Assembly: GCA_020052955.1 (NCBI GenBank)
Contig: JAGVOB010000004.1
Span: 12,522 to 76,521 of the forward strand
Reading direction: 5' to 3'
DNA: 64,000 nucleotides
Source: Candidatus Omnitrophota bacterium
GTDB lineage: Bacteria > Omnitrophota > Gorgyraeia > VGKN01
Under the pieces are notes generated by a model. That model had not been told where the DNA came from, did not search any database, and saw only the letters and a program-made list of their open reading frames with translations. The number at the start of each line of letters is the position of its first letter. The stretch's first letter is position 1. Below, one piece after another: positions 1,208 to 62,585 of the stretch. The position numbers and the translations under genes are program-made.

Positions 1208-1235
1208 TTGTCAATTTTTTTTGGTACTTTATACT
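1208..1235 (+). promoter_or_regulatory. candidate sigma70-type promoter for the giant gene (TTGTCA - 16 nt - TATACT)
   Basis: TTGTCA at 1208-1213 and TATACT at 1230-1235 in an AT-rich intergenic region about 120 nt upstream of the ATG. Sequence-pattern match only. Confidence 0.3.
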
Positions 1236-1314
1236 GATCTTTACAATTAATTTAAAAAGTTTTCGCGATTGCTTTGAAATTATAAAAATGCAAAATGATA
1301 TATAAACCGCAGCA

Positions 1315-1351
1315 ACGAGTAGAATTTTGATATATAAAAACTCGTAAGGGA
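1315..1351 (+). promoter_or_regulatory. 5' leader hairpin (ACGAGT...ACTCGT, 19-nt loop) abutting the RBS AAGGG
   Basis: Inverted repeat 1315-1320 / 1340-1345 immediately upstream of AAGGG (1346-1350). Possible translational control element; weak. Confidence 0.2.
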
Positions 1352-1358
1352 AACCAAA

Positions 1359-4300
1359 ATGGTAGACTGGCAGACAGGCGGTAAAAAAATGTGGATTAGA
1401 CTAATAGCCTTGGTTATAGCCGAGGTTTTTTTATTTACATCGATAGACCTGCCGTTTAGTAATTCTAACGCATATGCGTCTCCCCAGGAAAAACTTGTTC
1501 CCCCCATGCTCACAGGCAAATCCAAGGCCGACTCCCAAAGAGCAAGAGAAAATGAAATTATAGAAGGTCTGCTTCCATATCTTTTGAGAGACTTGAGGCA
1601 GCTTTATCCGGACGAATCTGCCCAGCAGATAATGTTAAGGGTACATAAACAATATAGCGATAGGATTACATGGTTTTCGGTTATGGGAATGACTGAAGAT
1701 AAACTGGGTCAGCCGGGGCATACCTATGCCTTTTCAATAGATAATAAAAAGGAGCCGGCACATTTTATAAGCGTTACCGTAACAGATGGTGCGACAAAAC
1801 TCCAGCCTTTGGATAAGATAAGTTTTGTAGATGATATAAGAAATAACAGAATCCGCCCCATCTCATTCTCTAATTTACCGATAACTGTTGCAGAGGTATT
1901 TGAGGTTCAAGGGGCCGGAGAAGGCGGGGGAAAAGAATTAAATATTGTTAAACTAGACAGTACAGACTTACTGTCTAAGGCAGCGGGGCTTTCGGGCTTG
2001 CTAATTGGTTACAGCGCAGGAGAGGGTAATATTGTATGGCGCATAGTCCTTGGGCTCGATGGTGTTTTCCTGCCAGGCCCGGGCACTATTATAAAACTTT
2101 CTCAGATAAATGACCTGGCTCAGATACTCCAAGCCCTAAAGGGCGGAACTGGACTTCCACAGGCAGATTTAGAGTTAACCCCGGAGAGATTAAAGTTAAT
2201 CCCTGCTATAACAGCTCCAGGCGCTCCTCAATTCCAATTAGTAAGAGCCGCAGCCACTAAAGAGGATGCCTCAATCACAGATAAACCCTTACGGGTATAT
2301 GTCTCAGAAGTTAATGTTGCAAAAGAGCCAGATATAAAGACACATCCGCCTACGGGGCCTCCGACAGGCTCCCTTGGCTTGTCTGCCATTATTCATCAAG
2401 CACCTATCACAGTAACCGTTTCCCAAATAACACCCCCTACCACAAGTAAAGTCCAAGTAGCTAAAGTAGAACAACCTGTAACTCCGCCCGCCGAAGAAGA
2501 AACCGCTCAGACACAAGAATTAGCCGAGACAATAGCAAGCCTTCAAAGACAGCTTGACCTTGCAAACCTCCTTCTTTTTACTCCATATCCTTCCAAAATA
2601 ATTTCTGCGCTTAGTGAAGCAATTAGGGTTGCAGAAGATGCGCTTAATAAACCAACACCTGATTTAGAGTCTCTAAGAGTGGCTGAGCTATACCTTAGTA
2701 GTGCTATAAATGAAGCCGTTATGACAGAGCCGATATCATACGTTTCTAGCTTACCGCAAGCCACAACACCACCCAGCGTAATTCCTCCGCCAACAGCAAC
2801 CTCCGCCTCTGTTACGCCCGAGCTGCTACAGGTAGCAGTAATTGAACCAACCAAAGGTGCGGTTGTAATGCCAAGGGTAGGACAATTGGCTGTTAAATTA
2901 GCGGCACTTGAGCCAGCAGGCGCTGCGGGAGAAGTTATAGTTACGGGAACAACGAGCAGTGTTTCTTCAGCCGCACCATCAACAGCAGCGGTTCAGCCTC
3001 TAAGAGCGGAGAAAGAATTAAGGGTTTCTGCTCCTGCCGTACCGTCTTCTATCAGTCCAGCCACTCAAATATTAGAGATTGTGATAAGGGCGCGGGCGTT
3101 ACTTACCAAAGCCAACAAAGAAAATGTTGTGAGCTTGTTAAAACAAACTGATATCCAAATATTAAAAGCCGCCCAGACAGAACTCGTAGATATAATAGGT
3201 ATCCAACCGACAGAAATTATGGCAACAGATGCTATAAGAATTGTTAAATTTACGGGGGTTCAACTTTATTACCAAAACGGAATGCCATATCTGACAGAGG
3301 TTATTGGAAAACTGCAGATTTATGATGCCCAATTTGAGAAGTTGTTTAGACAGTTAGCGGCCATAAGAGCGAGCGAAACAGTAGAGATAAGAGGCGCGAT
3401 AGAAAAAGTTCAATTGGCAAAATGGCAGTTTATAACAAAGGTTGTGCAGGAAGCGATTATTTTAAGAGAGCCAAGCGCGGCTATATCTACGGCACATATT
3501 TCCCCGGCAGTAACTTCAGCTGGCACTGCTGGGGCTAGTTTACCTTCAGTGCAAGGTCCAAAGGTAGTTGCTCTGGCAGAAAAACAATCTACAAGAGCTG
3601 TTGCAACTACAACAGGACAAGCAATGGCTACTACCGGCGTAACCAAACCTATAGTTGCTTCTGCTTCGCTTCCCACTGCGAGATCGACAACACTCGGACC
3701 GGCTGTGCGAACAGCTAAGGTAGCTAGTACATCTATCGCAATACCTGAAGTTGCGCCAACGATAGCACCTGCAGTCGTTCCGCAAGTTAAACCATCCAAA
3801 ACTACAGCCACCGCTACTGCTGCCGCAGTTCAGCCAACCACCAAAGGTATTTTTATACCCGAGTCCATTAAAAGGATTATAGTTACAGTTTCCCTGCTGG
3901 GAGTTTTGATTTTACTGCAAAATATACTTCCTTTACCCGGATTAGACAAGCTTGGAATGGGTATAGGCAGTATGTTTGGAATGAAGAGTGGGATATTTGG
4001 CCTTGGTCTTCAGCCTTATATCATCGCTTCTTCCTTGGTTCAAGTAGGTGCCGCCTTTATCCCTGCCCTTAAGAAATATGCGGAACTCGGCAAAAGCGGA
4101 CAGGCGAAACTGGCCGGGTACACTATGATACTTACGCCTATTATTGCGCTATTTTTAGGATTCTCTAATTTAGCTTCTATTGGTGGTATGTTTGCAATTG
4201 GTGGACTGACTATTTCAGGCCCGTTATTTTTAATATTAGCAGTTTTGGGTATGTCTCTTGGTTCGTTCTTGATAGCATTTGTCGGGGAAAGGATAACCAA

Positions 4301-7300
4301 GCATGGTTTGGGTCAGGGCACAACACTTATTATATTTACAAGTATATTAACCTCAATCCTTACCTCAGGGGCATCTGTTTTAAGCGGGGTTTCTGCGCTT
4401 CACATTTTCTCCATTTTAGCGCTAGGTGTAGTAGCAATTGTTTTACATGTCGTTACATTTAAGATACCACTTAAATTTGTAAGCAACATTAAAGAGGTAA
4501 AAGGGGAACTTCCTCTTAGAATGAACTACACAGGCACAAATGCCATTATGATAAGCTCTATGTTAGCGTCGCTTTTAGGCGCTGCTATGGGCGGTTGGCA
4601 GGGTATACTTATAAACAGCATAGCCATACTGGCTATGACAATTTTTACCACATACAGCACATTTACTCCTGATAAGTTGAGCAAAAACCTAAGTGCTCTC
4701 GGCGTCCAAGTGCCGGGAGTAGACGAGAGTAAATTAGGAAGTTATATATGGCGAAAAAGACTTTTATGGATAACGATACTGGGCGGCGTGGCTGTGGTGT
4801 TACTCGCTGGCTTACCAGGTCTTATATTAAACGGATTTAATCCCGCGCAGGCAGGTCCTGCAGGAATGGGTGCGATATTCGGAGGAAGTACGTTATTGTT
4901 GTTGGCGAATGCGCTGGTTGAGGTTTGGAATAATATAAGATATGCAGGGGCAAAGGGAGAAGCGCGAGGAGAGATTCAGCTGGCAGCAAAAGTCCAGAAG
5001 AAACCTATTATAAAAGTAGCAGGGTTTACCATTAAACAGATTTTGCCTTTTGGTATAACAGTTGCAAGTTTAGCAGGGATAGTTCTATTAAGTAATTATC
5101 TTGCCACAATAGGCGCTCTTATCGCGTTTATGTCAGGTATCTCTGTATTCGTTGTAATGGCGGCTATAATTAGTGCAATAGGTTATGGCGTGTATCTTAT
5201 AAGAAAGCATCAAATAGATTTTAATAAGTCTGTGGAGTTTTTAGGTGAGCTTACAGCGGGCCCAGCGTTTTTAATAGAAAACAGGGTTAAAGATTTTATG
5301 AATGAAGCGGAGACTGCCGCTAACCTGCCAGAAAATAGCAGATTTATTGAACAGTATGTAGAAGCACATAGAGGCGTTGCCGAAGAGCTTATCTTAAGAG
5401 AGCGCGCCAAGACAGAGATTATGAGACAATATATCGTTAAAAAGACGCACGAACAGTTATTATCTGATAAAACCGCAAGCTATGAAGAGGCTGATGCGCA
5501 TCTAGGGAAAATAAGGATAGATGCCATTGCCTTAGGCATTACCGCAATACAGTTATACAGGAGACGCGTTTCGGGTGAGACCAGGCTAGAGGCAGATAAG
5601 CTTACAGGCGCCAAAAGGATTATAAGGGAAAATCCCGTAGCCGATTTTACAATTCATAGAAATCAGATATTCGGCATATGGTTTTTGACTGAGATTAAAC
5701 ACTTTAGGGGCAGATTTATGACATATTTAGTAAGGATATTGAGTCCGTTCCTTCCTGAGGAGGCAATGGCAAAGATTAAGGGGTATGCCGTACAGGTTCC
5801 CACAGGTGAAGGTAAAAAGGAAATGGTTGGAATTGCCGCATATGTAATGTCAAGGGCGAACAAGGGAGTGCTTTTGGCAACGCATGCGCCGGACCTTGTA
5901 TATGAACAGGCAGTGGATATGGGCGATATATTTGCCTCGTGGCTTGATACGTCAGTTGGCGCAGTAGGCATACCAAACGAACAGGGAGAACAGACGTATT
6001 ATACCTTCAAATATGATTCAGATATGAATGAGGTAGAGGTAAGGCATGAAAAAGAGACGGCCAAATTTATACCTGCATATGCGTGCGGCGCTACATACGG
6101 CACGATGTCAGCATTTAACTTTCATAAACAGTTAGAAAGGATGGGTAGAGAAATTAGAAGAATTTATTCTGCCATACTAGATGAGATAGACGAGATTTTG
6201 CTTATGCAGGGCGTAAACCCTCACATCATATCTAAAGGCGATAAGGATCCGTTTGTAGAATTGGTTAATCAGCATATGGAAGACATTCTTAAGGTTATCT
6301 CCAGATTAGAAGCCGGAGAGCTTATATATGAACAAGGCCGGGTGCAGTTGGTTAATGCAGGACGCATAGAGGAGATTCTTAAGGATAAAGCGCACTCAAG
6401 AGAGGTAGCGGCAATATTTAACGACTATAGAATCGCAAGCTTTATAATAGGACGCCTGGTTAAGGAGTTAGCTGATAATCCGGATAATTACACCGTTGAC
6501 GAAGAAACAAGAAGAGCAACATTAACAGATAATGCAAAGGAATATATCAAAGAGTTTCTCGGAATTCCCGATGATAAGAATCTAAATGAATGTCCGGCGC
6601 TTGCGCATTTTGTGTGGGCTGCAATGAACGTTCAATTTAACTGCAGAAGGACTACGAAAGAATTAAGCGATTTATTTATGGTTATCTCCCAATTAAGAAA
6701 GGGAGATGTTAGATTTGACGCGGCTTCTGGAAAGGCGAGTTTTGCTGATCAGGGAATTATAGAGAAGATACTACGAGACGAGGAGCGCGTAATGGCTGTA
6801 TCCAGCGTACTTAGCGATCCGACACGCCACATAATAGGTTATTTAATAGGAGAGATGCGGAAAGATAAAACCAATTTTGTTCTTAAAGATGGAAAACCAG
6901 CGTTAAGCGATAAAGGAAGTAGATATATAAAAGAATTCCTTGGAATTCCCGAAGAAGCAAATCTTAAAGATTATCCCAGTCTTTCAAGCTTGATAGAAAA
7001 AGCATCTGATTTTAGCGCTAAGCCGAATGTTTCTATAGAATATGGTCTGGTTGAGATTAAGGATGATAAGAGTAATATAATAGGTTATGACGTAGTAGGT
7101 TATAACTCATCAACAGGCCAGTGGATGATAGGCCAGACCTATACCGACATACATCAGGCTATGGTTATTAAGGAGTTGTTTGCTGAGGTAAATAAGGGCG
7201 TAAGAGGCAAGATACGCTTTGTGGCAGAAAATGAGGCTATAAGCCAGCAGATGAACCAGTTATTCCTTAAGGATTGTTATCATGAGGCGGGAACATCGGC

Positions 7301-10300
7301 GACTTTAGAAAGAGAGGCTGTAAGGAGAGAATGGGAGACTTTAGGCCTTTTGGTCAGGAGTCTTTCTAAGGATAGGGCACCTGCCGTTGTAAATTTAGGG
7401 GTTGATGTATATTTGACTCGCGAAGAAAAGGCCCAGCCTATTACTAGGACAATAGCCGATAACGGTCAAAGAATTTCCGGAACCCTCATAGGTGTTTTTA
7501 CGGACCAGGGGGTTAATTGGGCAAGATATACTCTTGCGCGCCAGTTGCGCGAAGAGGGTTTTGAGGTTTATATAATTGACCAGCATACAACACCGGAAGA
7601 GATTAAGATGGCTAAGGGAAAGGCTAAGGATTTAAAACATAATCCAGACCCAAAATGTATTTTCATCATGAACCCAAGAGGAAACCGCGGGGTCAACCTG
7701 GCCGGTACTGTCCCGGATCTGCTATGTATAGCAGCAGAGATACCCGACACTAAAGACGCCCTTATACAGTTACTCGGCCGTATCGGAAGGCAGGGCGTCC
7801 AATGTTTTGTAAAGGAGATATATTCCCTTAGCGATAGTGATTTGTTCAAGGAGCATAACAGAGACCTGTATAATAAATTTGTTAAAAGCGGCATGACAGG
7901 AGAGATTACAGGCAGGAGAAGGGATAGCGTTCTAAAAGGTATAGAGAGTGCGCAGGAGATAATGGCATTAAGGCAGTCCGGCTCGCGTATAGACCTCGGC
8001 AGGTTCTATGGGTTGGTTCATGAGACATCCCAGAGAAGATTCGCCATGGAGGAGGGTATAGGAAGGCGTTCTACAGGGGATTTGAGGAAATATATATTAG
8101 GTTTAATTGAAGAGGATATGAAGCCCGAGGTTAAGCTTAATATTTTAATTCTCTTAAGCCTCCTCAGCGAGGAAACAAAAGGGGCTGTTGTAAGTATTAT
8201 AGATGAAGCGATTATGAACGAGTGGAGTAAATATCTTTCAGGAATCCAAGACCTGATGAAAAAGATTCAACTTGCCCAGTTTAAAGGAAAAGATCCCTTT
8301 GGAGAGTTTGCTCTTGGAGCTGCGAGATTAAGAGATAGTTTTAAAAGAGAGGCTGCCCGCAATATTGTAATGGCTTTAGCAAGCGTACATCCAAAAACCC
8401 TTTTAGAGATAAAACAGAGATTAGATGAAGAAAAGAGGATAGAGAGGGAAGCGGCTGCCTATTTTGGGGAAAGGCAGGTTGCATCTGAAGGAATAACTTT
8501 TGCGCTTGAGCCTGCTATAACAGAGGAAAGAGTATTTAGTGCCGCCGGCATCCTTAAGGATTTAACATCTCTAGCGCTTGATAAATCAAGGGCACCACAG
8601 ACAGGGATGCTCCATATTAAAGTGGGCGATGCAGAATTTATCCAGATAGGAGGGCACCTGCAGCATGGTGCAAATGCACCTGTTGAGGTAGTCTCATATG
8701 GACAAAACGGCGATACAACAAGGCCTGTTATAATAGTAAAGCTGAATCGTCCGGAAGATGTGGATAGAAAATTTTTAGAAGATTTTCTGATTCCCGATTT
8801 ACGTATGAAAATTTCTCCTAATGCAAGGGTTATATTTGTGTATTCCGGAAGCGAGAAGGAATTTAAGGCAAAGAGATATGAGATAGCGAGGGTTTATTCG
8901 CTGGTAAACTCTATCTCCAAAAAACATACAAAACAGGCAATCACCGGTTATATATGGGACAAAACAAATGAATCTCCAGCGCTTGAGCAGATAACGCCTT
9001 ATGTTATTCCTGTTTTCGATAAACTTGCCCACTGGCTGTCAAGGCTTAAGACACGAGCTCCAACGAGAGAACAGCTTAAATATAATTTTGTTCAGGTTTT
9101 AAAGTCTATTAATAGGGAAAACATAAAAGAATTAATTACAAATATCACGACTTTCAGATGGCAGGATATAAATTCTCAGAGTTTATTTAAAGTCTTTGCT
9201 CCCTCCTTAATGGTTTTAGGTGCAGTATTGCTCCCGTTAAAAGTATGGCTCTCGGGAGCTGGTATATCCGGGATAGAGGCCTTAATTACACCCAAACCTG
9301 TCTTGACTCAACAGGCACAATATGCAGGGCAGAGTGCAGGGTTAAGCCCTGATGAAAGAAATGAGATTGCACAGGTTCCCGTAGGGCAGCAGGTTGCTCA
9401 AGAATCCGCAGTACCTCAAGCGGTTGTCAGGGCAGAGCAAGCGCCTGCTGTAGCGCCTCAAGAAACAACCGCTGAACAGGCTAAGCCCAGCATATTCCAG
9501 CAAGCTTGGGCTGGCATAACAGGTCTATTCGCTTTTACAAAGCAACCCACTCAAAGAACTCAAGAAACTCAATATACTCAAATTGGTTTACCCAGCGCGC
9601 CTTATCAAGAGGTTACAGTCGGCTCACCACCTCCACCACCTCCGGAAAAACTAAATCCATTCCAGCAGTTCTGGTCTTTTGTGACAACCTCTTTTAGCAC
9701 TAATACTAATATTGCTTCTGCCTACACAGGCGTACCTCAGGTTGAAACATATACGCGTGATTTGTTACCATGGGTCATATTTTTTGGCATATTTGGTAGC
9801 ATTCTTGGTGTAAGAAAAAGAGATTTAATTGGAAATTTCCTGCGCAATGGATTAACCAATATTCCTGGCTTTATCAAGATAGCAGTCCCTGTCCTTATAG
9901 TTATGTTTTTATTATCAAATTCTACGCCAACACAATCAGTAATTGCACCGCCCCCAGCCAAAGAAACAGTTGTGCCTGTTATTATACCTACTGTAGAGCC
10001 CATAAAAAATATGGCGGAACTGCCCGCTAAGATTGATGAATTTTACACTTCCACTGAGATTTCAAATTTATTACTTCCGCCCGCACTAATATCTCTACAA
10101 AATGTAGGTAATTTCTTAAAAGTGCTCGGAGGTACTTCTCTAAAAACTCCAGAGGAAATAGTTGCCCTTAAGCAGGCGCAATATCAGAGAGCCACAGGAA
10201 AGACAATGAGTGAAAGTAACCGAAGCCTTCTACTTGAGTTTGAAAGTAAGAGGAACGACCCAGCTTCTTCGCCCGAGGAGGTATTTCAGCTATACAGTAG

Positions 10301-13300
10301 AATCGCAGGGAATCCAGAAATTGTATTTGACTATGGAAGCAGTATGGCTATTTGGGTCGAATTTAGAGAGAGTTTAAACTCGCCGGATAGTGCGAAGATA
10401 AAAGTTCTTTTAAATTCAATTTTATCCATTCCTCAGTTAAGGGATTTTATAAATAAGAAAGACCCAGCCCTTATCAAAGATTTAGAGCTTGCCCAGAGGG
10501 TTCTTTCGGGAGAGGTAAAACTTACCCCTGAGGTATGTGAGGTATTAGAGCAACTCGGCGCTAAGCTCACCGATTTAGGGAGAGATAAAGATAATCATGA
10601 AGAATTACTCAGAATTGATAATGAATTAAATCAGGTTATTCTGGATACTTCAAACCAACTGTTAAGCAATATATCTGAGGAAGAGTTGGAGAATTGGTTT
10701 AAGGAGAGAGGAATTACTATTTTGTGGGATGTAAAGGAAGAAGAAAAGCAATTCAGTAAACTTTATTTAGCTACATTAATATCACTTTTCTCCCTGTCAC
10801 AGATTCCGCCAGAGAGATACAGGGACTTGAATATAAGGATTTCTAATGATAGCTTTGCCTACAACTTTAAGACCGATACCATGGAATTTAACTTTCAAGA
10901 TACATTTGAAGGCTGGTATCCGATAAGAAGCGGTTTAATTGATTCAAGGACCACATTAGTTCATGAGATTTCTCATCGCTGGGACCTTAAATATCTGTCT
11001 GAAGACCTAAGAGCCCAGTTTTATAATATCAGCTGGGACTTTGAGCAGGTAAAGCAAAGACAAAGAGAAAGGGATGAAGCAACTGAGAAAGGGGAGAGGG
11101 TTATAATTTTGGACAGCACGAGAGAAGACGCGAATTTAGACAGGGATTTTCTGTGGGGGCACATTGTTCAAGGAGAACTTTCAAGTGGGATGGCAGTTGA
11201 AGACATAGCAAGAACAGTACAGGTCTTATATACAAATCCCTCTTTTGCTGTTAATAATGCTATTGATAACATAACTGAGTATGGAGACCCTGATTTAGCC
11301 CAGAAGATATTTTTCGCTTATGGGTTTTATGGGAGTGTCTCCAACAATGAAATATGGATAATACGCAGTGATGGCGCACCAGTTAATGAGGATGATGGCG
11401 TATATGTTTTTAAGCGAGATGGCAAGGTGTTTGAGGTAAAGATTGAAAATGGCGTAGCTGCAAAACCGCGCGAATTACCCGCTGATTTTAACCCAAATCC
11501 TTTCATACAGAAGTTATTTTCTCAAGCAACACCTCCAAAGCAATTTAGTCTATTGGATGTTATCACGGTCCGTGGCGCCTCTGCGTATACAGGCACAGGG
11601 CAGACAGGAATATTTACGCCTGATGTTCTTGGGTTAGTTGTATTCTTAGGTATATTTGGCGGTATTATTGGCATAAGAAAAAGAGATTTAATTTTTGATT
11701 TTCTACGTCGTGGCTTATCTAATATTCCACGTATCTCGCCACGTCTTGTTATAACTATGCTGGTTCTGTTGCTTGTAGCTACCTCTTGTGCACCGGCACC
11801 AACCGGGGGAAATCCTCGGTCAATAGCAACTTTGGCTCCCCCATATGAAGTAACCGAGACATTAATACCACCTGTTAAAGCTACACCACTTCCAACCGCT
11901 ACACCTTATGCAACAGTAGGGGATTATTTATCCAAAAAAGGTTTACCCGGCACTGTTTCTGAAGCTGAACTATCAAGATTTACGAGCCAGTTATTTGAAA
12001 AGCTTCTTGAGGATATGTATAAGGAAGGAACGCTTCCAAAAGTAGCAGGTTACGAAAAGGTATATACAGAGTTTATTCAGACATTGCGTAAACCCGGCGC
12101 TGTTAAGGTTTCTCCAGATACAAATGTTTTCTATTATATTAACCTTCACTCAGAATTACTTAGTAACGGTGTAATAGCGACAGATATACTTGTAAATAGA
12201 GGTATTATCAGTCCCGATTTTCCGCTTGATTTATTAAAGGATACCTTAAGACATGAATTTGTGCATTTTGTAAATAAAGACCTTACAAGAACCAAACTTG
12301 TGCTTAATGAAAGACTGAGAGAAGCTCTTATAAAGGCATACTCATTGCCGATACCTCAGGATAAAGATAAGGACCCGGACGATAGAGGAATGTATTTATA
12401 TAATAATTTTATTGAGGTACTCAAAAAGGACCAGAATCTGAGAGAAGATATAAAACGCCTGATAGCGGTATTTGTAGAAGACGAATACCTTGCATATGTT
12501 CAGGAGGCAAAATATACGAAAGTGTTGAGTAGTTTGCATCCAGAGTTGCGTATGCACGGTTTCTTTAATCCTGATGGCACAGTAAGGGATGAGATGGGTT
12601 TAAGGCTATGGATACTTGAGAGAACCATCCCGTCTATAAATCCGCACCTTCATCAGTTAGCAAATGAGATAGAAAGAATAGAAGGCAGGGCAGATTACTA
12701 TCCAGTTCCTGCTGGCGAGAAGCCTTACCGAAGATATAGCTTTAGAGCAGCCCATCCCCTAACAGGAAAAGAAGTAATTATTTCTTACCCTCTTATTATA
12801 CCAAAGGTTCTAATCAAGGAAGAAGTAGGCGGTGTTAAAACAGCACTTGGTCTTCCAGAGGAGATATTCGGAGAGGTTGCTCCATATTTTAGAAGAGAAC
12901 AATTAAGAGGAAACTATTTTGAATATCTTAAGAATAAGACTTATAAGGATTACAGAATTCTAGCTCCAAAACCAACCTCTATGTTACCACAGGATACCCT
13001 TATTAGCTTTGCCGGAGATTTAGTTACAGGCTTCCTTACGGCTAATGCCGTCCAGGCCGCAGGCCCAACACTGACCTCGACTAAAGCAGAAGTTGATATT
13101 CCAGGCCTCTTGCTTGTAGGCGGTGCCTCCTTGTTAATAGCCATATTTGCAGTTGCAGTAGCAAGGCCCTTGGGCGGTATGTTTAAGTTTGTATTCAATC
13201 CCCTGCCGTTATTGGTTATCTTAGCAGGAATCCTGCTTGCATATTTAGCGTCTACCGCTACTGTTTATCCTGCAACCCTTACCCCGGAGCAGGCAGATAA

Positions 13301-49300: not shown

Positions 49301-52300
49301 CACAACCATTATTTTAAATGCAAACCTTATCACTCTAAGCCTGGTTGTCATTAAGCAGGCAACGCTAAATCTAAAGAGTAAACTTGCCGGCATAAAACAG
49401 GCGTTTGCATGGACGCCTCAGGCAGATGTAGATAAACCAGAAGAATTTATGGAGGCAATCTATGGGCACGTCTCTGTTCTCAAAGCTGGTTTTATAATTT
49501 TATCTTTAATAGCTTTTCTCTCGTTTGGTATGACCCATTCAGCCAGCTGGATGGTTTTAGCGCTTCCGCAGGTTCTTGCATTTACGCTAAGTCCTATCTT
49601 TATGTGGCTTACCTCCCAGAGGCCAAGCACCTCTCTTAAGATTGCCTGGTTCGGTGTTATCCCGAGCATGGTTATGACAGGGCTCATTATGAAGATGATT
49701 AGTATTGGCGCGCCACTGATGCTTACACCCGGGGGTCCGATATGGACGGTGTCGGTAGCGGTCATTATGATAATAGGCGCAGCGCTTGGTGCTATTGCAG
49801 GCTATACCATCAGAAAGGGCCAGCTTATAAAAAGGAAAAAGGAGCAAAATATCCCTGTGCCGCCCATATGGTCTCCTAAAAACTTTAGAGATGTATTATT
49901 TTCAGTATCAAGGGGAAGTGTATTGTTTCCGGTATTAAAAGGTCTTGCCGGAGGGGTTTTAATTACTGCCTCAGCAATATTTACTGGTCCCTATACAGAG
50001 ATTACTACTCTTTATCCATTTGCTGTAGGCGCTATTATGGGAGCGATTATCAGCAGTGTTTTGATAAATGCCGGTTTTAGTCGGCAGAAAGATGAAGAAA
50101 AGAAAAAACTTAAAGTAGGTATTGAAAAATTTTCTGAACTTAATTCAACAGAGCAGAACATTGTCCATATGATTTATATCCTTCGCTGTATTAAGCCCGA
50201 CAGTGAGGCATTAAGGCTTTATGAATACACAGCACAAGGTTATGGTTTGAAGGTCCCAAGACTTGATAACGTATTAGAAGAATTTGACAGAGAATTTGCA
50301 GGATTGGATCCGAGACTGCTTGAAATTGCTAAAAAAGTTTATGAACTCCAGAAGACCTCACCCGATGATAAACCAGCCTTAAAGTATTATACAGAGTTAG
50401 CGAGGCGTAACGGATTATATGAAGAAAAACTTGAAAGAATTCTGGCAAGATTAGAGGGAATAGAAAAAGGTATAACCTCTACGCCTACTCTAACAGCCCA
50501 ACCAGAGCAGGCGATTACGCCAACCACACCAGCAGTTACTATAAAGCAGAGATTATCCTTGCTATTACCTAAATTGTTAAACCGCAAAGCAGTAATTATT
50601 ATGGGTATAGTTTTACTACTTGGCATAGTTACTATTTTAGCAGGTTTGATAATCTTACCAACGATGCAAATACCAACGGCTACGCAAGTGGTTGAAACTA
50701 TAACCAGAACTATTTCACAGATAACCCAGACAGCCACCGAAGTTGTAAATACCCTTACCCCAACTCCTACTACAACTCCAACGCCAGGCGTAACTCCTGC
50801 GCCATCTGCTACGCCCTTACCAGTAAGCCCTGCGCCAACAGTTACAGGAGCACCAGTAGCAGAGGCAACTCAAGCGGTAAATTTGATGATGTGGTTAATA
50901 GGCGGAGGTATTTTAGGTTTTATTGCATTAACCGCTCTCGGTGTTAGATTATATCTTCAAAGAAAAGTTTCGCAAAAACAAGCAATTGTAGCACAGGTTG
51001 CTCCTACCCCTCAACCTGCTTTATTTACTGCACCGCCTTCTGAATTTGAGGAAGCCCTGGAAGAAGCAAGAAATGCCGGCGTTTTGGAAGGAGAGCTTAT
51101 AGCAGTTGCTACAGTTGCGGATGTCAGGGCTCTTATAATTGTGCGCCAAGAGGCTGTAGCGCGTGCCAATAGGGCAGGCGTAATAACAGACCTCACAGGC
51201 ATTACCACAGCCGGTATCAATGGACTCGCTGAGTTTAAGGAAACTATATCCGAAGCGAAAGCCATAGGCGTTACAGAAGGAGAACTTAAGACAGCCAATA
51301 TCTCAGATGAAGTTAGAACCCTTATTACAGCCCGCCAGCAAGCAATTGAACGTGCCCAAAAAGCCAGCTTAACCATAGACTTCACTGGTATGACTGCAGC
51401 CGATATAAATAAACTCGCTGAGTTTGAAGAAGTTAAGGTTGAAGCAAGAACCGCAGGTGTTACTGACGCAGAAATCAATATAGTTGAAACTACACAGGCA
51501 CTTAGGACTCTTATTGCTTCTCGCCAAAACGCTGTTAGCCGTGCTGAAAAAGTGGGGTTAGAAACAGAAGAACTTAAAGAAAAACCTATAGCCGAGGCAA
51601 TAAAATTAGTTGAAAAAGCAGAAACCTTTACTTCGGTAACAGGGCTTTCTGTTCCAAAAGCGGAGTCTTCATACCGTCCGCTTATTAATCTTCCAAAAGA
51701 AGAATTAACAGAAAGGGCTAAAGCGTTAAGAGAGACTAACCTACCTGTTAAAGGATATTTATTAAGGTATAAATCAGAAACTATAAGGAATAAAGAAGCA
51801 ATAACTGAAGATTATGCCCAACCATTTAATTCTAGCACTGTCAGGATGAGCGAAGATAGAATTAAGGAGAGGTTTGAAAATGAGGTATCAAGAATTGCTA
51901 AATGGACTATCCCTCTGTTAAAGATGAAACTGAAAGAGGGCTCTGAGAATCATATGCGCTTGACAAGATACCTTGAGAGGCTTAGAGAATTAAAAGCCGC
52001 CCAGCCTGAATTATTTAAAAATACCTTAACGCAATCAGGATTAGATAATATCTACTTATTAAGAGAAGTTCTCTCTAAGAAATCTACCGCTACAGTCCAA
52101 TCTATGCTTGCCAACTTATTCACCTATGAGTTTGGCGGAAGGTATATGTGGCTAAACTGGATTACGAGGGTAATAGGGCTTCCTGCAATAATAGTTGAGG
52201 AACTTTCTCATTTTATTATGCATATATTTGCAAGACTCGGCATACCAAGAGTAAAAATATCCACTAAACTTTTGGGCATAGAGATAAGCGAAAGAGCACC

Positions 52301-55300
52301 TCCTATTGTTAAACTCATTGGCCCTGCATCTAATATCCTTCTTCTCATTGCCTCCATATTCCTTTATCTTCACACCGACCCCTCCACCCTAACTACAGGT
52401 TTATTTATCTGGTCAATATCTGCCTCAATACTTAGCATACTTACCGCAATATATGATTCTGCTAAATTCCAGACAGGGGATATTTACGAAGCGAGAGTAA
52501 GCTTTTTAATAGAAAGGTTGAAAAATTCTGATCGGGGTGTTTGTGCTAATGCTGCAATAGCTTTGGGTCAAATAGGCGACCCAAGAGCAGTTCCAGCTCT
52601 AATAGAAGCCTTAAAAGATAGAGATTGGTATGTCCGCTCCTGTGCCGCAACAGCCTTAGGCCAGATTGGTGACCCAAGAGTTCTATCAGCACTCAGGAGT
52701 TTACTTTTGCATACAAGCCCAATGGTGACATATACATATGAAGAAATAGAAACGCAATTTAGAGAGGGCTGGTTTGGATACTCTGGAGATTGGATATCGA
52801 TAGAAGTAATAAAAGAAGGAACAAAGTCCAATCCCGAATATACAGCTATTGAACAAGCAATAGCAGCTATTGAAGCTCGGATGGGAGAATTGCCAACCGG
52901 AACAGGTGTGGCAGGAAAGAATGCCCTTGCAGCCGCCGAATCATCCTTAGCCAATATCTTCTCCTATGCCTTTGGCGGAAGGTTTGCAAAGTTAAACTGG
53001 TTGCCACGACTAATATACCTTCCTTTTATGCTACTGCTGGATGAAGTTTTGCATATTAGCACTCATTTAGCCACAGGCTTTGGCATGCCTGAGTTTATAT
53101 GGAATACCAAATTTTTCGGCGTAAAGATAAACCCGAGGGCGCCGCCTATTGTAAAACTGATAAGTCCTATCATTCATATCCTGCTTATACCTGCCTCAAT
53201 CTTCTTATATTCCTTAGTAAAAGACCCAGCCGCTATACATACAGCACTGCTTATCTGGTCGCTCTCATTCTCAATATTAAGCCTATCTGCAAGCATACTC
53301 AGCAATATTAAATACAAGACAGGGGATTTATACTTAACTGCCCCCGCAATTGGCGGTGCCCTTGGCATCTGGAAGGACATTGGCTTAAAAGCCGAAGACC
53401 TAGCTAGTATAGGGTTTATGGAGGGTGCATTCTTTGGAAGCCTGTTGCTTTATAATATGTGGCTAGGCAATGTTTTTAAAATGATTGAGACAGGTTTTGG
53501 CACATTAAATATTACTCAACTCTCCACAGGTTTGTTTGCAGTCCCTGGCTCCCTATTTCTTTTTACAGGTATTATATTTATTGCCTACCTTCTCTTAGGT
53601 ATATTGTTTCCTTCTGAAGGAGTCTCCACAATAAAGAACGCGGGCCTCAAGACACATTTCTTGAGAGCACTAAATGCTACAGGCGTAGCTATGTCAGGCG
53701 TTTCTCTTGCAGGCGTACTCGCTTTATCCTTATCGCTGGCAGGCTTGCCAATTGGCGTCTCAGTTATTGTCGGAGTATTAACAGGGGCAGTTTTACATTC
53801 CTGGCTTAACTGGCAGGCCTACAGCAGAACCATCAAAGACAAGGCAAAGACTTCAGGCATCTTAACAACCCGTTCTATAAGCATTGGAATCTCATCAGGA
53901 CTTCTGATAGTGTTTACCAGCCTGTGTCTTAGCCTATTATCGTCAAAATTTGGATATTTAACCCCAGAATTTTTCACGCTTCCGATACCAGGTTTTTCTT
54001 ATATTATAAACGTTGGCCTTATGCTTTTAGATGTACCCAACAGATTCTTCTGGGTCCTTGGCAGCATGCCATTTCTTATATGGACGTTGGAGTCGTTTTT
54101 TAGAAAAGGGATATATAAAAGCCTTAAAAGAGGTAAATTCCTTCCTTCAACAGGTCGTTCAAGTTATTTTACGTTAAATGTAATACAGGCGCTTCTTTTT
54201 GCATCTTTTTCCGTCCCCTTTATGTATTTTTCATCCGCTGGAGCTATTCCATTGCTCATAGTATTTTTCTTCACAGGGCTTATGTATGGATTTATCTATG
54301 ATAGAGCGGGCATAACAGGTTCAATAAACGCCCATCTTGTCGTCAGTATTTTCGCGCTGCTTGGCACTGATAGTATGCTATCTTTTACAGTGCTCTTCGG
54401 GCTATTATTGGGGGTCAATATAACATTGTGGCTCATCTATTGGTTATTAATGCGGCCCTTGGCTGGACAGTTACCGCGAGAAGGGCATATAAAAACCGCT
54501 GAACCTTATCCGCATTTCTGGCAGGAATTAAACCTGATTATTCCAGAGTTTCATATTTCCCATGAGGCAATAAATGGCTGTGATTTCATACCTGCCGAAG
54601 AGGTCTTTAAGGAACATAATCGATTGATTTGGTATGAACATTCAGCTGAAAAGCCACAATTTGTATTTGATATTGAGGGCTTGGTTGAACCAGTAGAGAG
54701 AATACTCAAGTTAGAGAAGAGGATAATTAGCTTGCATGAATTGCAACTGGTTGATTCAGAAGAGGAGGCCCGCACGCTTTTACCGATAGCTATTCTTATA
54801 CTTGAATTGGAACGGGCGCAACTGCATCGGCTTATCAAGATTCAGCCAAAGGCAGATAATACACCCGTTGTATGTATGGAAATGATTCTCGCATTCTTCG
54901 CGGTTAGGCGTTTTCTGCTCTTCCCAAAATATGTTCGCCAGCAGATGATTGAATTTTATAAAAAGCGCGATGCAAATTTTGCAGATGTTCTTACCACCGC
55001 TGACCGGGCAATAGAGAAAAGTTATAACAAATTAACTCTTGCAGAAGGGCAAGAACTAGCATTGATGCGCGCTACTGGCATAAAGGTTAGCGATGATAAG
55101 GAAACAGTGCCAAACCTTATTGACTATAGCATATGGCTTAGCAGACAGGCGGGTGTTAGTCTATACCAAGATGACATTGAACGTGTAAAAAGTTTTGTTA
55201 GGAAGTTTTTAGCCGACAGGCTCAACACATACGGCTTCTCTGGCATGTCAAGGCAAAAGGTTATAGAGGATATAATCAGGCTTTGGCATGAGGAAGGTAA

Positions 55301-58300
55301 GGTAAGGATAGAAAAGGAGGATGAGCGTTCTCTTGAAGCCTTGATGGACTCTCTCATCCAACCCCACAGAGAAGAATTTAAACCTCTTGTTGAGCAATAC
55401 TGGGCTACTGAGGATAGTAAAAAACGGCAATCTTTGGAAACACGAATAAACGCCATAATGGATACCATAAACGTATACAAAGGCACAGAAGCATCTGAGC
55501 TTGAACTGGCTGATGTTCTGTCTTTGGATGAGTTCTTAGAAACCCCATATGCCCAAAGATACATAGAACTTGCAAAACATGCACTTCTATTTGGGCAGTA
55601 TATCCCGGAGTTTATATTTGCAGGTGCGGCAACAAGGCTTAATAAAAATTTAGAAGATTTAGGCTTACCTTCTACCGGTCCTATGTATCCATTAGATATC
55701 TGGAGTATTGCCGAAGAAGAAAAGATAGGTCTTATACCACCCAGCGGAGCACGCTTAAGACTTGGGATGGGGCCAAGACAGATTATCGCCTATAGGAGAT
55801 ACTTAGAGAACTTAGCCAGAGAGCAGGGTGTTAGTCCAAAGACAGTCCTTAAAAACCAAAGACTCGTCATCCATATAAACGATGAGATATTTGATATGGT
55901 CTTAGATGATTTTATCAAAAACGACTTTTATGGATTTAGTCCAGATAAGGTGTTCTTCATCAATGTAGACCTAAAATCAGGATATCTCCTTACTGAAGAG
56001 GGAAAACTCACCCCATCCAAAGATAGCCCAAAATTGCCCTATGGTCATGGCTATGCAAGTATGCAGATGGTAAAACCAGGCCTTGCCTTTACCATTGATA
56101 TATCGCAGCAATCTACAGATAGAAATAAACAACTCCGTTATCTTAAAGGAGATATGCTTAGTTATCTTATAGACCATGATGCGGCTTTAATTGGCACACA
56201 CAGGTTAAATGACCTAACCAAATTCACTCCAACTCAGGTTGTGGACATAGAAAAACTTGCCTTTGGTATGTATCTCATTGAACAAGGAAATGAGGTGATA
56301 GTGGATTCAGTTGAGAATCCGGAAAACCAGAAAGGCGGCCAGCTATTACAGAATAAGGATACAAGGAAGAAATTTCTTATAGAAGTTTCCAATTTTAGAG
56401 GAAGCCCGGGGCTTGATTCGTTGATTAAAAGAGGCGTAAATGTGCCATACAATGCCTTTAGACTCTTATATGACCTTAAAGCAGCAAAGAGGCTTCTTTT
56501 TCAGGGGATTTCTTATAATGTAAGATTTAAGGATGGTTACTTCTATTTAGAATCTGTAACAGGAGATGTTACCCAGCTTATAGATGCCAAAGTTGCAGGT
56601 ATTAAAAGACAAGGTGAGCTAATCCACGACTTCAAAGAACTCGATAATCTTAACGACGCACTTACATTCTTAGGGCAAAGCGATGAAGAGATTAGGGTTG
56701 GCAAACTGATAGAGTTTTTTGAAGAGGACGCGGTTAAGAAAATAATAAAGCGTCTTGGTGGAATGGAAGGAAGAGCAGTTATTCTTATAGGAGGAACTCC
56801 AGGCGCAGGCCTCAAATATTTTGCAAATGTAATACTTAATGAACTTGGAAAGAGAAATAGGCGCGCTAACATCCTTTCTGCTTATAATTATTATAAAGAC
56901 TGGACAGAGATGCCACACAGGAAAGATGGTACCCTTGATTTTGAATCGCCTCATAGCCTTGATATAGAGTTGTTGAGGTCACACGTTAAAGAACTGCTTA
57001 AAGGTAATACTGTGCAGATTCCTCAATATGACTTTACAGAAGGCAGAAGAACAGATATGACAACCAGCATAAGGCTTGAGGAGGGCGAGGTGTTGATTCT
57101 TGAGGCTATTCATGGTTTAAGCGATGAATTTTTAGCAATGGCAGAAGGTGTGCCTGTGGTTAAAGTGTTTGTTGATTCAGATGAAAACATTCGGCTCCTT
57201 CGCAGGATGGGTGAATATGCAAGTGAAAGAAAAATAGACCCTATAGTAACCATAGAAAGATGGGATCGGGTTAAAGAGGCCGAGGTTTCCTTTGCGAACC
57301 CCACAAGGCAGAAAGCAGAACTTGTTGTTAACACAGGAGATGTTGTGGAATTTAGGAAAAATGAAGTTTCCAAGATGCTTCCTGTTTTAAATAGTGCCTT
57401 GAACAGGGCTTTACAAGAGAACAAACACAGCGTTGCTGATAAGATTAAAGAACTCCAGCGATTCTTAAGCAGTCTGCCTATTGAGTCGATGGATAAATTA
57501 ATTAAGGCTGCAAGGTCAAAACTGGCTATGCACAAGAAACCGGTAGTTATTGCTATAGATGGCATACATGGAGTTGGAAAGACAAGCACTGCAGAATTAC
57601 TCGCAGGAATCATAGACGGAATTTACATATCCCTTGGCGAGATATACCGTGTGGTTACCTGGCTTGGGTTAGAATACGGTTTAGATATCCATAATCCAGA
57701 AGATATCGCAAAACTTAGAGGATTTTTATCGCAGATAACGACTCTTGAAAAAGACTATCACGTTAGGTTCATATGCGTCAAGGACGATGCACCTTTAGAC
57801 ATTACCGAAGAACTGTACACAGAGCGAATCAGCAAAAATGTGTCTGATTTTGCAGAATATATTCATAATGAAGTAATAGAGTTTTCTAGGGAAATTGTGG
57901 GAGCCCTCAAGAAAAGAGGTAAAAACGTGATAATTGAAGGACGGATTGCAGGCACTCACATCGCACCCGACGCCGATGCAAAAGTCTTCCTAAACGCAGA
58001 TTATATTACAACAGCCTCAAGAAGGGTAGAACAATATATACAAGAAGCCGATATCTCTGGGGAACCTATGATTTTCAAGACCTCATGGGAAAGGCTTATT
58101 GCAAAACTTAAGAAAGTATATTTTGAGGTATTTGGTCCTATGAGCGAAGAGGATTTTGAACACAGACTTACATTATATGGCTACGAGGGCCTAAAAAATG
58201 AATTACTGGCTGAAATAAACTTACGACTTAAAGCAAGAGACGAAAGAGACGAAAATCATATCGAACAATATATGCCCCCCGTAGATGCCAAAGTGACCCA

Positions 58301-61300
58301 GGATATAATAAGAGTTGACACAACTGAGCTAAATATAAATCTTGTTGCAGAACTTATACTGGAACTTTTGACAGATGTATTTGCAAAAAGAGTCTCCGGT
58401 CTTAGTCCGCCATTTAAAAAATTTGACAACTTCCTTGAATATTACAATTACCTGGTAGATGAGAGAATGCATTTTGCCCAAGAGCAGGGCTGGATTAAGA
58501 AAATAAATTGGCAGATTGAAGAAGCGGCAATGGATTATACGGGAAGACCGGCTCAGATAGAAGTTACAGGAGAATCAGCAGAAGGCCGTTCACAGGAAGC
58601 AAGAAAGATTTTAAGGTGGATATTCAAAACAAGTCAAACACGCTATGACTTTATAGAATATTTGAGGCATTATCAGGTAGGCCATACCTCGCGCAATAGG
58701 CTTACTCCGTTATATGTAGCAGTGTATAACTATCTTTCCGAAAGGCCGCTTAACGATAGAAGGGTTATGGATGAAAATCCCGGCCTATTTATAGATAATC
58801 TTACAATTAAAAGCCATCCCTGGTATGGAGATTATGATTTGGCTAAAGAAGGTTTTGAGCCTAAAGAAGATATTACTCTTCCTGTTCCTCAAAAAAGGAA
58901 GATAAGAATACTGCTTATTGGACATGCTGAGAAATTCGGACATCCAGAAACATCCTCAAGCACGCTGTTAAGGGAGATACTTAGCAGGCTCCCCGCAGAT
59001 AAATATGAGATTGAGATTGTAGCCAATGACGTTATTTATCAGGAAGTAATCCACGATTTTTCTGGGGATGGTTCTTATCAACGCAGGATAGGCTATCAAT
59101 TTGAGCAGGATGGCGAATTCTACGATACAGAGAAAGGCGTTAAGTTTGTAAAACTTGATATAAATAACCCTCGTCAAAATCTATTAAGCGAGGATTTTCA
59201 GCCAGATGGCAAGTATGATATTGTTATTAACTCAAGGCTCGCCGTTCAATATGGTGAATACGAGGAAAAAGTAAGCCAAATCAGAAAAAATTCTATGCAA
59301 TATTTAGCCGAAGGAGGAATTTTATTTTTTGATACAGAAACCACAGACCGCGCGGAAGTTATCCGGTTACAAGACGGAGTGTTCGTAGTACAAGAAAGGG
59401 TTATACCTTATCTTGATATATGGGCATATACGAAGAAGATAAAGCGGATTGTATTAGATGATAAAGGTACTCAGAGGGTAACAGATAAGCATAGAGATTT
59501 AATAGAAAGAGCATTTAGGCTGGCCGAAAGATATGCTGATATAAATACACCTATGTATGACAAGGCAGTAGTGGCAGACCTCTTGAGAAGGATAGACGAA
59601 GATTATCTTTTTATGCTCGCGGTTTTACTCTCAGGCGTCTCTATAGAAAAGATAAAAAAGCATTTTGACCCTGATATAGTTGAAAGACTTATCGCGATGA
59701 GAAAACATATGAAAGAGATTACGCCTGAGCCAGCTTCCCGTGTCGGGGAGTTTAATATCTTGCGCTCGAAATCCTGGTTTAATATCTCATTGGAAGGGCA
59801 AGCTATAGAAGACCTGAGACTTATCTATTCAGATGGAATATATGAAATTTACTTAGGCAGAATAGACAAAAGAGAGGTATTGTTAATAGATAAAAGATAT
59901 AAAGGTAAGTTTATAAGAAGAGCATTGTCAATTGAAGAACCTCGGTATACAGAAGACGAACAGATATTTAAAAAAGCTGTTGCTTATTATCTAGAATATG
60001 CATATCGGGAAGTTGGCGAGAGTGTTTTATCCAGTGCCCATAGAGCATGGCGCTTATACAATTCTTATAACTTGTCCGATAGAAGGCCAGGCCCATGGTC
60101 TAATACGTGGTTAAGATTTTATGTTGCAGCAGTTATTCTCCATCGTCTTAAAGTAGAATTGTATAATGATATTTTAAATATACTCTCACGGCTTGATAGC
60201 GGTCAGGCCGTAGATATCGCTAAAGAAACAAGAACTCTCTCGCAAAAGCATAAGCTGGCACAAGAAGAAATAGAAGAATTACAGGAGATGATTGTCTACG
60301 CCTTCAATCCCCAAAAAATTATGCATAGGATAAATACTAAAACATCGAGAAGAATGCTTAACAATTTATTTAACCGCATGAGCAAACCCAAAGGAAAATT
60401 TTCTAGTAAACAAAAAGAAGAGATTATGCGGCTTTTCCCTGCGCTTAATCAATTCTCCCCGGAGGCGTTAAATCATGTTATGAGAGTAATAGAATCTATA
60501 AGCAGGCTTGCTAAGGGGGATATCAAATACTTCGAAGATGGTCTTAGCGCTGAAGATAAAGCACTTATGGCAGAGGAAGGTCTTGAGCGCTATAGAGCAC
60601 ACATACAGGAACTTCATATGAGATATCGTAATCTTATGCAGACCAATCCAAGCAATAAGACAATATTATGGCTGGCAGTTATTTTTCATGATATTGGTTA
60701 TACCATATCCGGAAGTCATAGTCATAACCACCAGAGATTAGGAGTAGATATAGCAAGAAAGGCTTTAAGTGAGCTTGGGTATTTTGAAGAAGAAATCGAG
60801 TTAATTACCAAATTGATAGAAAATCATACAGCCACAGGAGAAGTCTCAATCGGAGAAAGGTCAGCGCGTTCGGCGTTAAAGATTCTTGAGGTAGAGGATG
60901 TGGATAGGCAACAAGATTTTGCCAATATGCTGTTAGTCCTTAACTCAATGGATCTGGCAGGATATGAGGAAGCAAGAAATAGGCTTAATCTGTTCTGGGT
61001 TGAAAGATATGTAGGTAACTCAAATATCGGTAGATTGAAAAATAAAGACTCCGATACTGAAAATTATATTGATAGATTAGAAAGGCTTACCTGCAGCCAT
61101 ATTATGGAAAAAGATAACCCGCAAAAACGCCAAATGATACACTCTGCAGTAGATAGTCTTATTGCATCGGATGAAATAGGATTATTCAAACGTCATTTTA
61201 ATAGCACGCTCGAAGTTCTTTTTATACTTCCTATTGTATTTTATTTGGCAGGAAATGACCCAACCTATAGGAGTTCAGTTAAGTTATTCCGCTTCTTGAC

Positions 61301-62585: not shown

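Follow-up and report, generated by a model that had tools for sequence, protein, structure and literature searches.

A single open reading frame (ORF) on a contig assigned to Candidatus Omnitrophota (JAGVOB010000004.1) encodes a protein of 20,408 amino acids that begins with a SecY-like channel domain and a SecA-like ATPase in one chain. The frame lies within a stretch of 64,000 nucleotides, referred to below as the window. Behind the SecY-SecA head follow a long series of modules predicted to lie outside the cytoplasmic membrane, five candidate lipoprotein-type cleavage sites, an endo-β-1,2-glucanase domain and, near the C-terminus, two nucleotide kinase domains. On balance, these features indicate that the giant is probably a self-exporting, possibly self-fragmenting, envelope-degrading membrane protein, export and cleavage being inferred from the sequence.

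The 61-kb frame is a genuine gene

The ORF listing of the window gives positions 1359 to 62585 of the forward strand as one ATG-to-stop frame. The nearest in-frame stop upstream of the ATG is at 1335, and a purine-rich AAGGGA is located 8-13 nt 5' of the ATG. The five other frames contain 691-1,800 stops each, one per 12-31 codons, and the longest open run among them (308 codons) is the neighbouring gene. The G+C content of the window is 38-46% (about 42%), so that the term AT-rich, used in a first-pass annotation of this stretch, is overstated. The conclusion drawn there, that an open frame of 61 kb is beyond chance, stands: at this moderate AT content, too, the lack of any stop over 61 kb is impossible by chance.

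Coding signals are uniform along the ORF. The G+C contents of the first, second and third codon positions are about 0.50, 0.39 and 0.36 in each 6-kb block. Codon usage of the blocks correlates with that of the whole ORF in frame (r = 0.92-0.96) far more closely than out of frame (0.07-0.38), and the period-3 signal per 3-kb block is 14-43 times the background, as compared with about 1 in the intergenic flanks. These are the codon-usage and periodicity checks that the first-pass annotation had proposed, and they bear out the single ORF. The fragmented state of the other frames and of the antisense strand that it described agrees with the stop counts given above. Overlapping pieces of the ORF were compared with Pfam, NCBIfam and PDB sequences, and all domain matches, from amino acid 879 to amino acid 19830, are in the same frame. 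Reading the frame through stop-codon reassignment was rejected on the stop statistics of the frames and on the domain scans. The 61-kb frame is confirmed as a genuine gene.

An independent relative was found in a scan of one genome per species. It is a 7,158-nt contig, CAYZNX010000060.1 (L001), labelled uncultured Planctomycetia, from a groundwater study (SRP090828; PMC5383146). L001 is open from end to end and shares 90.9% DNA identity with positions 3764-9332 of the window. The dN/dS ratio between the giant and L001 is 0.21 over 2,057 aligned codons, which indicates that the frame is translated and under purifying selection, at least in the part compared. DNA colinearity ends after the giant's amino acid 2658 (L001 5743-7158 against window 9332-9910), and protein similarity persists to about amino acid 2870. 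A unit of about 320 nt is present once more in L001 than in the giant, so that close relatives differ in the number of module copies.

Repetition in the protein is minor, with only 13 repeat pairs in a self-comparison. The repeats reported by the first-pass annotation at 26.8-32.6 kb are real. Their DNA identity is at most 92%, and their spacings (2889, 2760 and 2718 nt) are multiples of three, which identifies them as in-frame module duplications. Pfam and NCBIfam scans of the whole ORF found no condensation, adenylation or ketosynthase domain of nonribosomal peptide or polyketide synthases and no RTX or Ig adhesin domain, in agreement with the earlier statement that the protein is neither such a synthase nor a repetitive adhesin.

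It is very improbable that a chimera, a collapse, a mis-join or stops lost through error have merged several ordinary genes: the contig is of metagenomic origin, internal repeats reach 300 nt at 92% identity and the relatives are all known as fragments only, but 20,408 stop-free codons contrast with a stop every 12-31 codons in the other frames, codon usage and period-3 signal are homogeneous, the repeat spacings keep the frame, an independent assembly is colinear and open across 5.6 kb with a dN/dS of 0.21, relatives from other lineages (see below) are likewise open to both contig ends, and the loss of dozens of stops through error with the frame intact is not credible. The evidence for contiguity consists of these sequence statistics and of one independent assembly that covers part of the ORF.

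A SecY-like channel and a SecA-like ATPase in one chain

The SecY family of Pfam (PF00344) matches amino acids 879-1187 with 125.2 bits (cut-off 32.2) over profile positions 2-303 of 306, and SecY chains in the PDB match from transmembrane (TM) segment 1/2 to TM10 (E 1e-18). When conserved positions are defined as those at least 75% conserved among 77 ordinary SecY proteins, the domain retains 39 of 73, including the motifs PYI.AS and GE.IT..G.G.G; its identity to ordinary SecY proteins is 24%. The pore-ring residues of Escherichia coli SecY, which we take to be I82, I86, I187, I191, I278 and I408, align to I888, S892, T988, I992, M1064 and L1181 of the giant. The additional TM pair that follows TM10 is also found in the fused relatives described below.

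The SecA-like part is matched by SecA_DEAD (PF07517) at amino acids 1471-1650 (36.8 bits, cut-off 24.6). NCBIfam SecA matches span the nucleotide-binding domains NBD1 (1471-1757) and NBD2 (1917-2203) and the scaffold, and the part can be aligned to PDB chain 3jux. It has a Walker A motif, TGEGK, at 1482 and DEID at 1608. The scaffold-like stretch at 2240-2353 gives a weak SecA_SW match (E 0.0017) and an NCBIfam match, below the cut-off. Within it, QLAQFKGKDPFGEF at 2308 aligns to LRSYGQKDPIVEF of a solved SecA, a stretch that is presumably the two-helix-finger region. A duplicated insert, amino acids 1637-1879, occupies the place where the PPXD would be expected. The equivalog models for SecY (TIGR00967, 78.6 bits, cut-off 253.6) and SecA (TIGR00963, 37.7 bits, cut-off 800) are widely missed, as are the SecA2 models, which score 15-39 bits against cut-offs of 930-1,100 (TIGR03714, 18 against 930; TIGR04397, 39 against 1,085). 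Both domains are thus divergent paralogues and not housekeeping genes.

Amino acids 835-2034 were used as the query of an exhaustive HMMER search against 1.84 billion cluster representatives, of which the best 150 matches were listed. The best match has an E value of 4e-29. Among the matches listed, three proteins (P0002, P0003 and P0010) have SecY followed by SecA_DEAD in a single chain, and a fourth (P0001) shares the SecA-like part only. All four are incomplete, extending past the ends of their contigs (5-9 kb, 38-60% G+C); their sources are an Omnitrophica metagenome-assembled genome (MAG), an unclassified 'bacterium', a MAG of candidate division FCPU426 and an ENA metagenome. All listed matches to the SecA-like part (query residues 540-930) are these long fragments, and no SecA of ordinary length is among the 150 best matches. 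The other listed matches are to the SecY part only, and nearly all of them are of ordinary SecY length or shorter. The nearest database relative of the SecA-like part, among the matches listed, is from the Omnitrophica MAG, which makes the likeness to Omnitrophota giants suggested by the first-pass annotation an apt one.

In the two relatives with a known start, P0002 and P0003, the SecY-SecA module is N-terminal. Downstream of the SecA-like part the sequence of P0001 differs from that of the giant; this suggests that the translocon head is conserved and its cargo variable. A neighbour-joining tree unites the fused SecY domains in a single clade, with a bootstrap value of 89 of 200; with this weak value a single origin of the fusion is not claimed. 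Collections of phages and plasmids contained ordinary SecY genes only and no fusion, a scan of IMG/VR returned no relative, and a metagenome scan returned two ordinary SecA loci only.

Predicted exported modules, enzymes and neighbouring genes

TM-like segments were located with Kyte-Doolittle hydropathy windows. The head is followed by soluble modules of 170 to 3,460 amino acids each, extending over about 11,800 residues. The loops of the 13 TM hairpins located between amino acids 2800 and 13980 have 66 Lys or Arg and 10 Asp or Glu, as compared with 21 and 15 in the outer flanks of the hairpins. The positive-inside rule places the basic loops in the cytoplasm and predicts that the modules found between one hairpin and the next are outside the cytoplasmic membrane. 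This placement fits the presence of a glucanase and of Pro/Thr-rich linkers. Judged from the predicted topology, export would be needed for about 11,000 residues, 3,460 of them in a single stretch.

The ORF is poor in cysteine (27 of 20,408 residues, 0.13%). By eye, five of the 27 are in lipoboxes that end the second helix of a hairpin, after a basic stretch (Table 1). A strict definition of the lipoprotein signal (basic n-region, hydrophobic h-region and [LVI][ASTVI][GAS]C, of the PROSITE PS51257 type) is satisfied at three cysteines, where 0.1 would be expected by chance (P = 2e-4). The FCPU426 relative, P0010, also has a lipobox after its SecA part. Two of the hairpin-plus-lipobox units (..NNPITRRFKLTWLKRIAILGG.LILLTAC), at 16279-16407 and 17491-17619, share 91% DNA identity at a distance of 1,212 nt and represent a recent in-frame duplication of the signal unit.

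The one firmly identified hydrolase is the glycoside hydrolase family 162 (GH162) domain. It matches PDB entry 6imu, the enzyme TfSGL of Talaromyces funiculosus, over chain residues 12-501 of 505 (E 1.6e-102). The catalytic residues of TfSGL are E262 as the general acid, H316, and D446 as the general base (PMC12102758), and all three are conserved in the giant as E7342, H7395 and D7527. To judge from this conservation, the module is apparently an intact β-1,2-glucanase. TfSGL is a fungal enzyme, whereas the domain described here is one module inside a bacterial giant. GH162 proteins are almost all eukaryotic (PMC12102758), and a full-length match in a bacterium suggests either inter-domain transfer or an overlooked bacterial branch of the family.

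The other modules are less distinct. The three exported HExxH modules are possible zincin-type peptidases, based on the motif and without a family match. The match to the Tse3-type muramidase has an E value of 1.4e-3 and 19 bits (cut-off 27). LRV/HEAT repeats are also detected by Pfam at about amino acid 9267, and HEAT_2 repeats at 17048-17120 are situated among the polytopic membrane clusters. The module with a partial Pfam match to DUF3131 also faintly resembles a PDB chain that bears the name Glycosyltransferase 36. The last 6,000 residues or so consist of polytopic membrane blocks together with the uridine kinase, cytidylate kinase and HD domains, which are cytoplasmic. Relaxed Pfam scans of all soluble segments gave sub-threshold hints only, and domain scans found neither a C39 nor an S8 peptidase domain in the giant. 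A single-sequence AlphaFold model of amino acids 5420-5734 had a pLDDT of 43 and was discarded. A stretch before the uridine kinase that resembles a UDP-sugar pyrophosphorylase and a VanW-like stretch near amino acid 4400 had been suspected by eye; neither found support from hidden Markov models or the PDB, and neither is claimed. The first-pass annotation called the domain content unusual and named no domain. That judgement holds, and the content comprises a SecY channel and a SecA motor, envelope hydrolases and nucleotide kinases.

Table 1. Features of the giant ORF and its flanks. Positions are those of the window; the slash in a lipobox marks the candidate cut before Cys.
Position	Strand	Feature	Residues (aa)	Database
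1..927	+	3' end of upstream gene, cut by the window; several TM helices; stop at 925-927	at least 308	
928..1358	+	Intergenic region, homologous to 62586-63081		
1359..62585	+	Giant ORF; about 84 hydrophobic, TM-like stretches; 25 soluble segments (150 aa or more)	20,408 (total)	
1359..1538	+	Leader: KK, hydrophobic aa 11-34, then AYA/SP; 62% identical to start of downstream paralogue	1-60	
1461..3860	+	Ala/Thr/Pro/Ser/Val-rich linker; no domain match, no strong TM segment	35-834	
3861..4937	+	SecY-like channel domain	835-1193	Pfam, PDB
5031..5204	+	Two extra TM helices between SecY-like TM10 and SecA-like domain	1225-1282	
5676..8438	+	SecA-like ATPase	about 1440-2360	Pfam, NCBIfam, PDB
9261..44648	+	Predicted extracytoplasmic modules, separated by 13 TM hairpins	about 2635-14430	
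10962..15605	+	Three exported modules with one HExxH each: HEISH, HEFVH, HEEEH	3202, 3632, 4745	
11724..11789	+	Internal lipoprotein-type signal, lipobox VATS/C	C3477	
15249..15314	+	Internal lipoprotein-type signal, lipobox LAA/C	C4652	
16344..16403	+	Internal lipoprotein-type signal, lipobox LTA/C, then Pro/Thr-rich linker	C5015	
17556..17615	+	Internal lipoprotein-type signal, lipobox LTA/C	C5419	
17751..18086	+	Tse3 (type VI secretion system) peptidoglycan muramidase catalytic domain, sub-threshold	5465-5576	
22665..24149	+	GH162 endo-β-1,2-glucanase domain	7103-7597	PDB 6imu
25254..25310	+	Internal lipoprotein-type signal, lipobox LTA/C, then Pro/Thr-rich linker	C7984	
26790..32648	+	Tandem modules of about 960 aa, 40-93% aa identity; hairpin start, LRV/HEAT-like end	8478-10430	
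32667..43046	+	TM-free segment of 3,460 aa, mostly unannotated; HEAT_2 at 13148-13221	10437-13896	
43296..44648	+	Module with partial DUF3131 (profile positions 35-126 of 367)	14059-14157 (DUF3131)	
45786..54452	+	Three unannotated polytopic membrane clusters	14810-15155, 15918-16241, 17390-17698	
56778..57341	+	Uridine kinase domain	18474-18661	Pfam, NCBIfam, PDB
57543..58046	+	Cytidylate kinase domain; Walker A GIHGVGKT at 18735	18729-18896	Pfam, NCBIfam, PDB
60627..60848	+	HD phosphohydrolase domain	19757-19830	Pfam, NCBIfam
61716..61730	+	C-terminal HEGLH, adjoining a TM helix; sub-threshold match to DUF3267 (putative zincin)	20120	
63082..64000	+	5' end of downstream paralogue, cut by the window; conserved leader	at least 306	

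The genes on both sides resemble the giant. The start of the downstream gene is located 497 nt behind the stop of the giant. The 60 residues with which its product begins (MIDWQTGNHKFWLKLITLVIAEVFLFTSIDLP...) are those that resemble the giant's leader, with 81% DNA identity over 100 nt, and the gene is probably another giant paralogue. The end of the upstream ORF (..TLKNLLTELTQK) is faintly like that of the giant (..TLRELLIEFKQL; BLASTP E 0.05). No database record was found for this ORF, possibly the 3' end of another, third giant gene in the tandem. After both stops 13 nt (CCGTATCATTTTT) are identical, within 18 matches among the first 21 nt, and the two intergenic regions share further blocks, for example AAACAAAATTTAGAT; inserts of about 24-40 nt distinguish the downstream copy. 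To judge from these sequences, giant paralogues appear to be arrayed in tandem at this locus. Rfam and tRNA scans of the window found no rRNA, tRNA or marker gene.

A terminator-like hairpin, CCTTGGTTATAGCCGAGG, followed by a T-run is located at 1406-1436, 48 nt inside the ORF and in the sequence that encodes the leader. It is kept in the downstream paralogue at 63130-63158. It could be an attenuator for a costly gene, or merely conserved coding sequence.

Proposed export in cis, its alternatives and its meaning

The giant belongs to the described class of giant, TM-rich proteins with a SecA domain from Omnitrophota and related uncultivated bacteria, and its size is not exceptional. TM-rich Omnitrophota proteins of up to 85 thousand amino acids (kaa) that bear SecA_DEAD were described by West-Roberts et al. 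(2023, 10.1101/2023.11.21.568195). A 2026 preprint (10.64898/2026.06.07.730766), whose scan starts at 10 kaa, has 916 long proteins, 209 of them of at least 30 kaa and the longest of 147 kaa; the earlier placing of the giant among the largest known proteins is therefore dated. As in the described giants ('Archaeovorin-type'), a single ORF of tens of kb encodes tens of TM helices and is mostly unannotated, a very divergent SecA_DEAD is set apart from ordinary SecA, and HEAT repeats in predicted external segments occur together with glycoside hydrolases and suspected cleavage. Self-export and cleavage have been proposed for giants with many TM helices, divergent SecA_DEAD and HEAT, and their cleavage points were called unknown (10.1101/2023.11.21.568195).

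The differences concern architecture and surroundings. In the described giants SecA is near the C-terminus after TM anchors and has no scaffold or wing, whereas here it is N-terminal (amino acids 1440-2360) and includes a scaffold-like stretch. Their SecYEG is encoded elsewhere; here a complete SecY-like channel precedes the SecA-like part. They have C39 or S8 peptidases, in place of which the lipoboxes are the candidate cleavage points here. They fall in the class of at least 30 kaa, and the present protein, with 20,408 amino acids, is below it and above the 10-kaa start of the scan. Their neighbours are type II secretion, pilus or PilZ genes; within the limits of the window, those of the present gene are paralogues. 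The texts of the 2023 and 2026 papers mention no giant with a SecY domain; such a fusion may be contained, unremarked, in the 2023 data. New beyond both papers are the SecY-SecA head, the hairpin-separated exported modules, the five lipoboxes and the fungal-type GH162 domain.

Three further systems invite comparison. Gram-positive bacteria have an accessory Sec system (SecA2 and SecY2 with Asp proteins), an additional, divergent pair of SecA and SecY that serves a single, very large surface protein whose gene belongs to its locus. The giant is like it in this respect, but the parts of the accessory system are separate proteins, whereas channel, motor and substrate are one polypeptide here; domain scans of the giant found neither Asp1-3 nor the glycosyltransferases of that system, and the giant is not a member of it. 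Type V autotransporters likewise combine translocator and passenger in one chain, and the passenger is often cleaved. Only the concept is shared: their translocator is a C-terminal outer-membrane β-barrel with no ATPase and no sequence relationship to the giant, in which the translocator would be an N-terminal inner-membrane SecY-SecA pair. An engineered SecY-SecA fusion (Sugano et al. 2017, PMC5562318) is a covalent chain of SecY then SecA that is reported to keep protein transport. It was built in the laboratory from canonical parts; the present fusion is natural and highly divergent, has two extra TM helices and carries about 17,800 residues of cargo. The reported activity of the engineered chain makes the fused arrangement mechanically plausible.

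In the proposed mechanism the translocon module would be made first and inserted by the housekeeping Sec machinery. It would then act in cis and push the downstream modules across the inner membrane during translation. Large periplasmic domains of membrane proteins need SecA. Translation of the giant chain would last tens of minutes, and with a chain of 20,408 residues in the channel for that time a private channel would spare the essential SecYEG a long blockade. Internal signal sequences would be provided by the second helix of each hairpin, and helices that end in a lipobox may be substrates of Lgt and LspA; lipidation and cutting of the chain there would set free hydrolase modules anchored by lipid. 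Once exported, the enzymes would attack envelope polymers of other cells, namely periplasmic β-1,2-glucans and possibly peptidoglycan and proteins. Imported nucleosides may be salvaged by the kinases in the cytoplasm. An attack on the envelopes of other bacteria, as suggested by the enzymes, agrees with the hypothesis that Omnitrophota giants serve predation.

In its fullest form the proposal describes an 'inner-membrane autotransporter', in which about 11,000 residues would be exported in cis by the chain's own SecY and SecA and cut at lipoboxes into lipid-anchored hydrolases, with a small and deeply divergent family of such proteins in Omnitrophota, FCPU426 and related MAGs. This full version is put forward tentatively and is considered rather unlikely as a whole.

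Several observations weigh against self-export, cleavage and envelope degradation by an Omnitrophota protein. In the SecY-like domain the conserved Arg of the C5 loop is Asp, and two of the six positions that presumably form the pore ring (window 4020-4903) are polar, Ser and Thr. Polar residues in the pore ring are associated in E. coli with relaxed (prl-type) channels. Domain scans detected no SecE- or SecG-like part in the giant, and SecA_PP_bind (PPXD) gave no match in it and was detected in the relative P0002 only. The topology is paradoxical as well: the leader looks N-in and is followed by about 800 TM-free residues before the SecY-like TM1, and with no TM segment in amino acids 35-834 the N-terminal side of the SecY-like domain would be on the wrong face of the membrane. 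All five lipoboxes are 3,400-8,000 residues away from the N-terminus, and to our knowledge no internal lipoprotein processing of this kind has been documented. About 84% of the chain has no family match, and the muramidase and zincin hints are below threshold. No type II secretion, pilus or PilZ genes are found in the window, which covers 1.4 kb on each side of the ORF. With respect to the host phylum, the closest relative is labelled Planctomycetia, the next is from Omnitrophica and the one after that from candidate division FCPU426.

The giant might serve no predation and instead be a housekeeping envelope organiser, or a nutrient-scavenging platform with which a free-living member of the Planctomycetota-Omnitrophota group (PVC) digests environmental β-1,2-glucans and keeps enzymes tethered to its surface. 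This is a serious but lesser possibility. It would suit a closest relative from groundwater that is labelled Planctomycetia, the giant genes known from planctomycetes, the lack of secretion and pilus neighbours in the window, and a protein in which one hydrolase only is firmly identified. The next relative is nevertheless from Omnitrophica, and the architecture of TM helices, SecA_DEAD, HEAT and hydrolases is that of the Omnitrophota giants. In addition, β-1,2-glucans are described as typical periplasmic and capsular products of other bacteria (PMC12102758, PMC10514313). None of these points settles the lifestyle.

A second alternative accepts the head and denies its role in cis: the SecY-SecA module would not export its own chain, and would be a channel for other clients (effectors delivered to prey, or neighbouring giant paralogues) or a degenerate relic with an anchoring role only. 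The lost C5-loop Arg, the 24% identity to canonical SecY and the widely missed NCBIfam equivalog cut-offs are consistent with this, paralogous giant genes are located on both sides, and West-Roberts et al. allow for export 'of accessory proteins' (10.1101/2023.11.21.568195). ATPase and channel motifs are, however, retained under purifying selection, and the N-terminal position of the module in P0002 and P0003 fits its synthesis before the cargo. Moreover, the 11,000 or so downstream residues must cross the membrane, and large periplasmic domains require SecA. A client channel or relic is judged improbable, and export of the chain by its own head is the preferred reading.

How proteins of tens of thousands of residues are synthesized, inserted and exported is the question raised by the giant genes of Omnitrophota. 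The gene described here is a complete example of 20 kaa, small enough to handle, and gives testable answers. The candidates are a private SecY-SecA translocon fused to its cargo, a grammar of hairpins that predicts which segments are outside, and five candidate cut sites. If the chain is indeed cut at the lipoboxes, these would be the cleavage points called unknown by West-Roberts et al. A natural SecY-SecA fusion would also interest the translocation field, where fusions of this type had to be engineered before one translocon unit could be studied by itself. The GH162 domain extends an almost purely eukaryotic enzyme family into bacteria and points to periplasmic β-1,2-glucans as a target of the giant.

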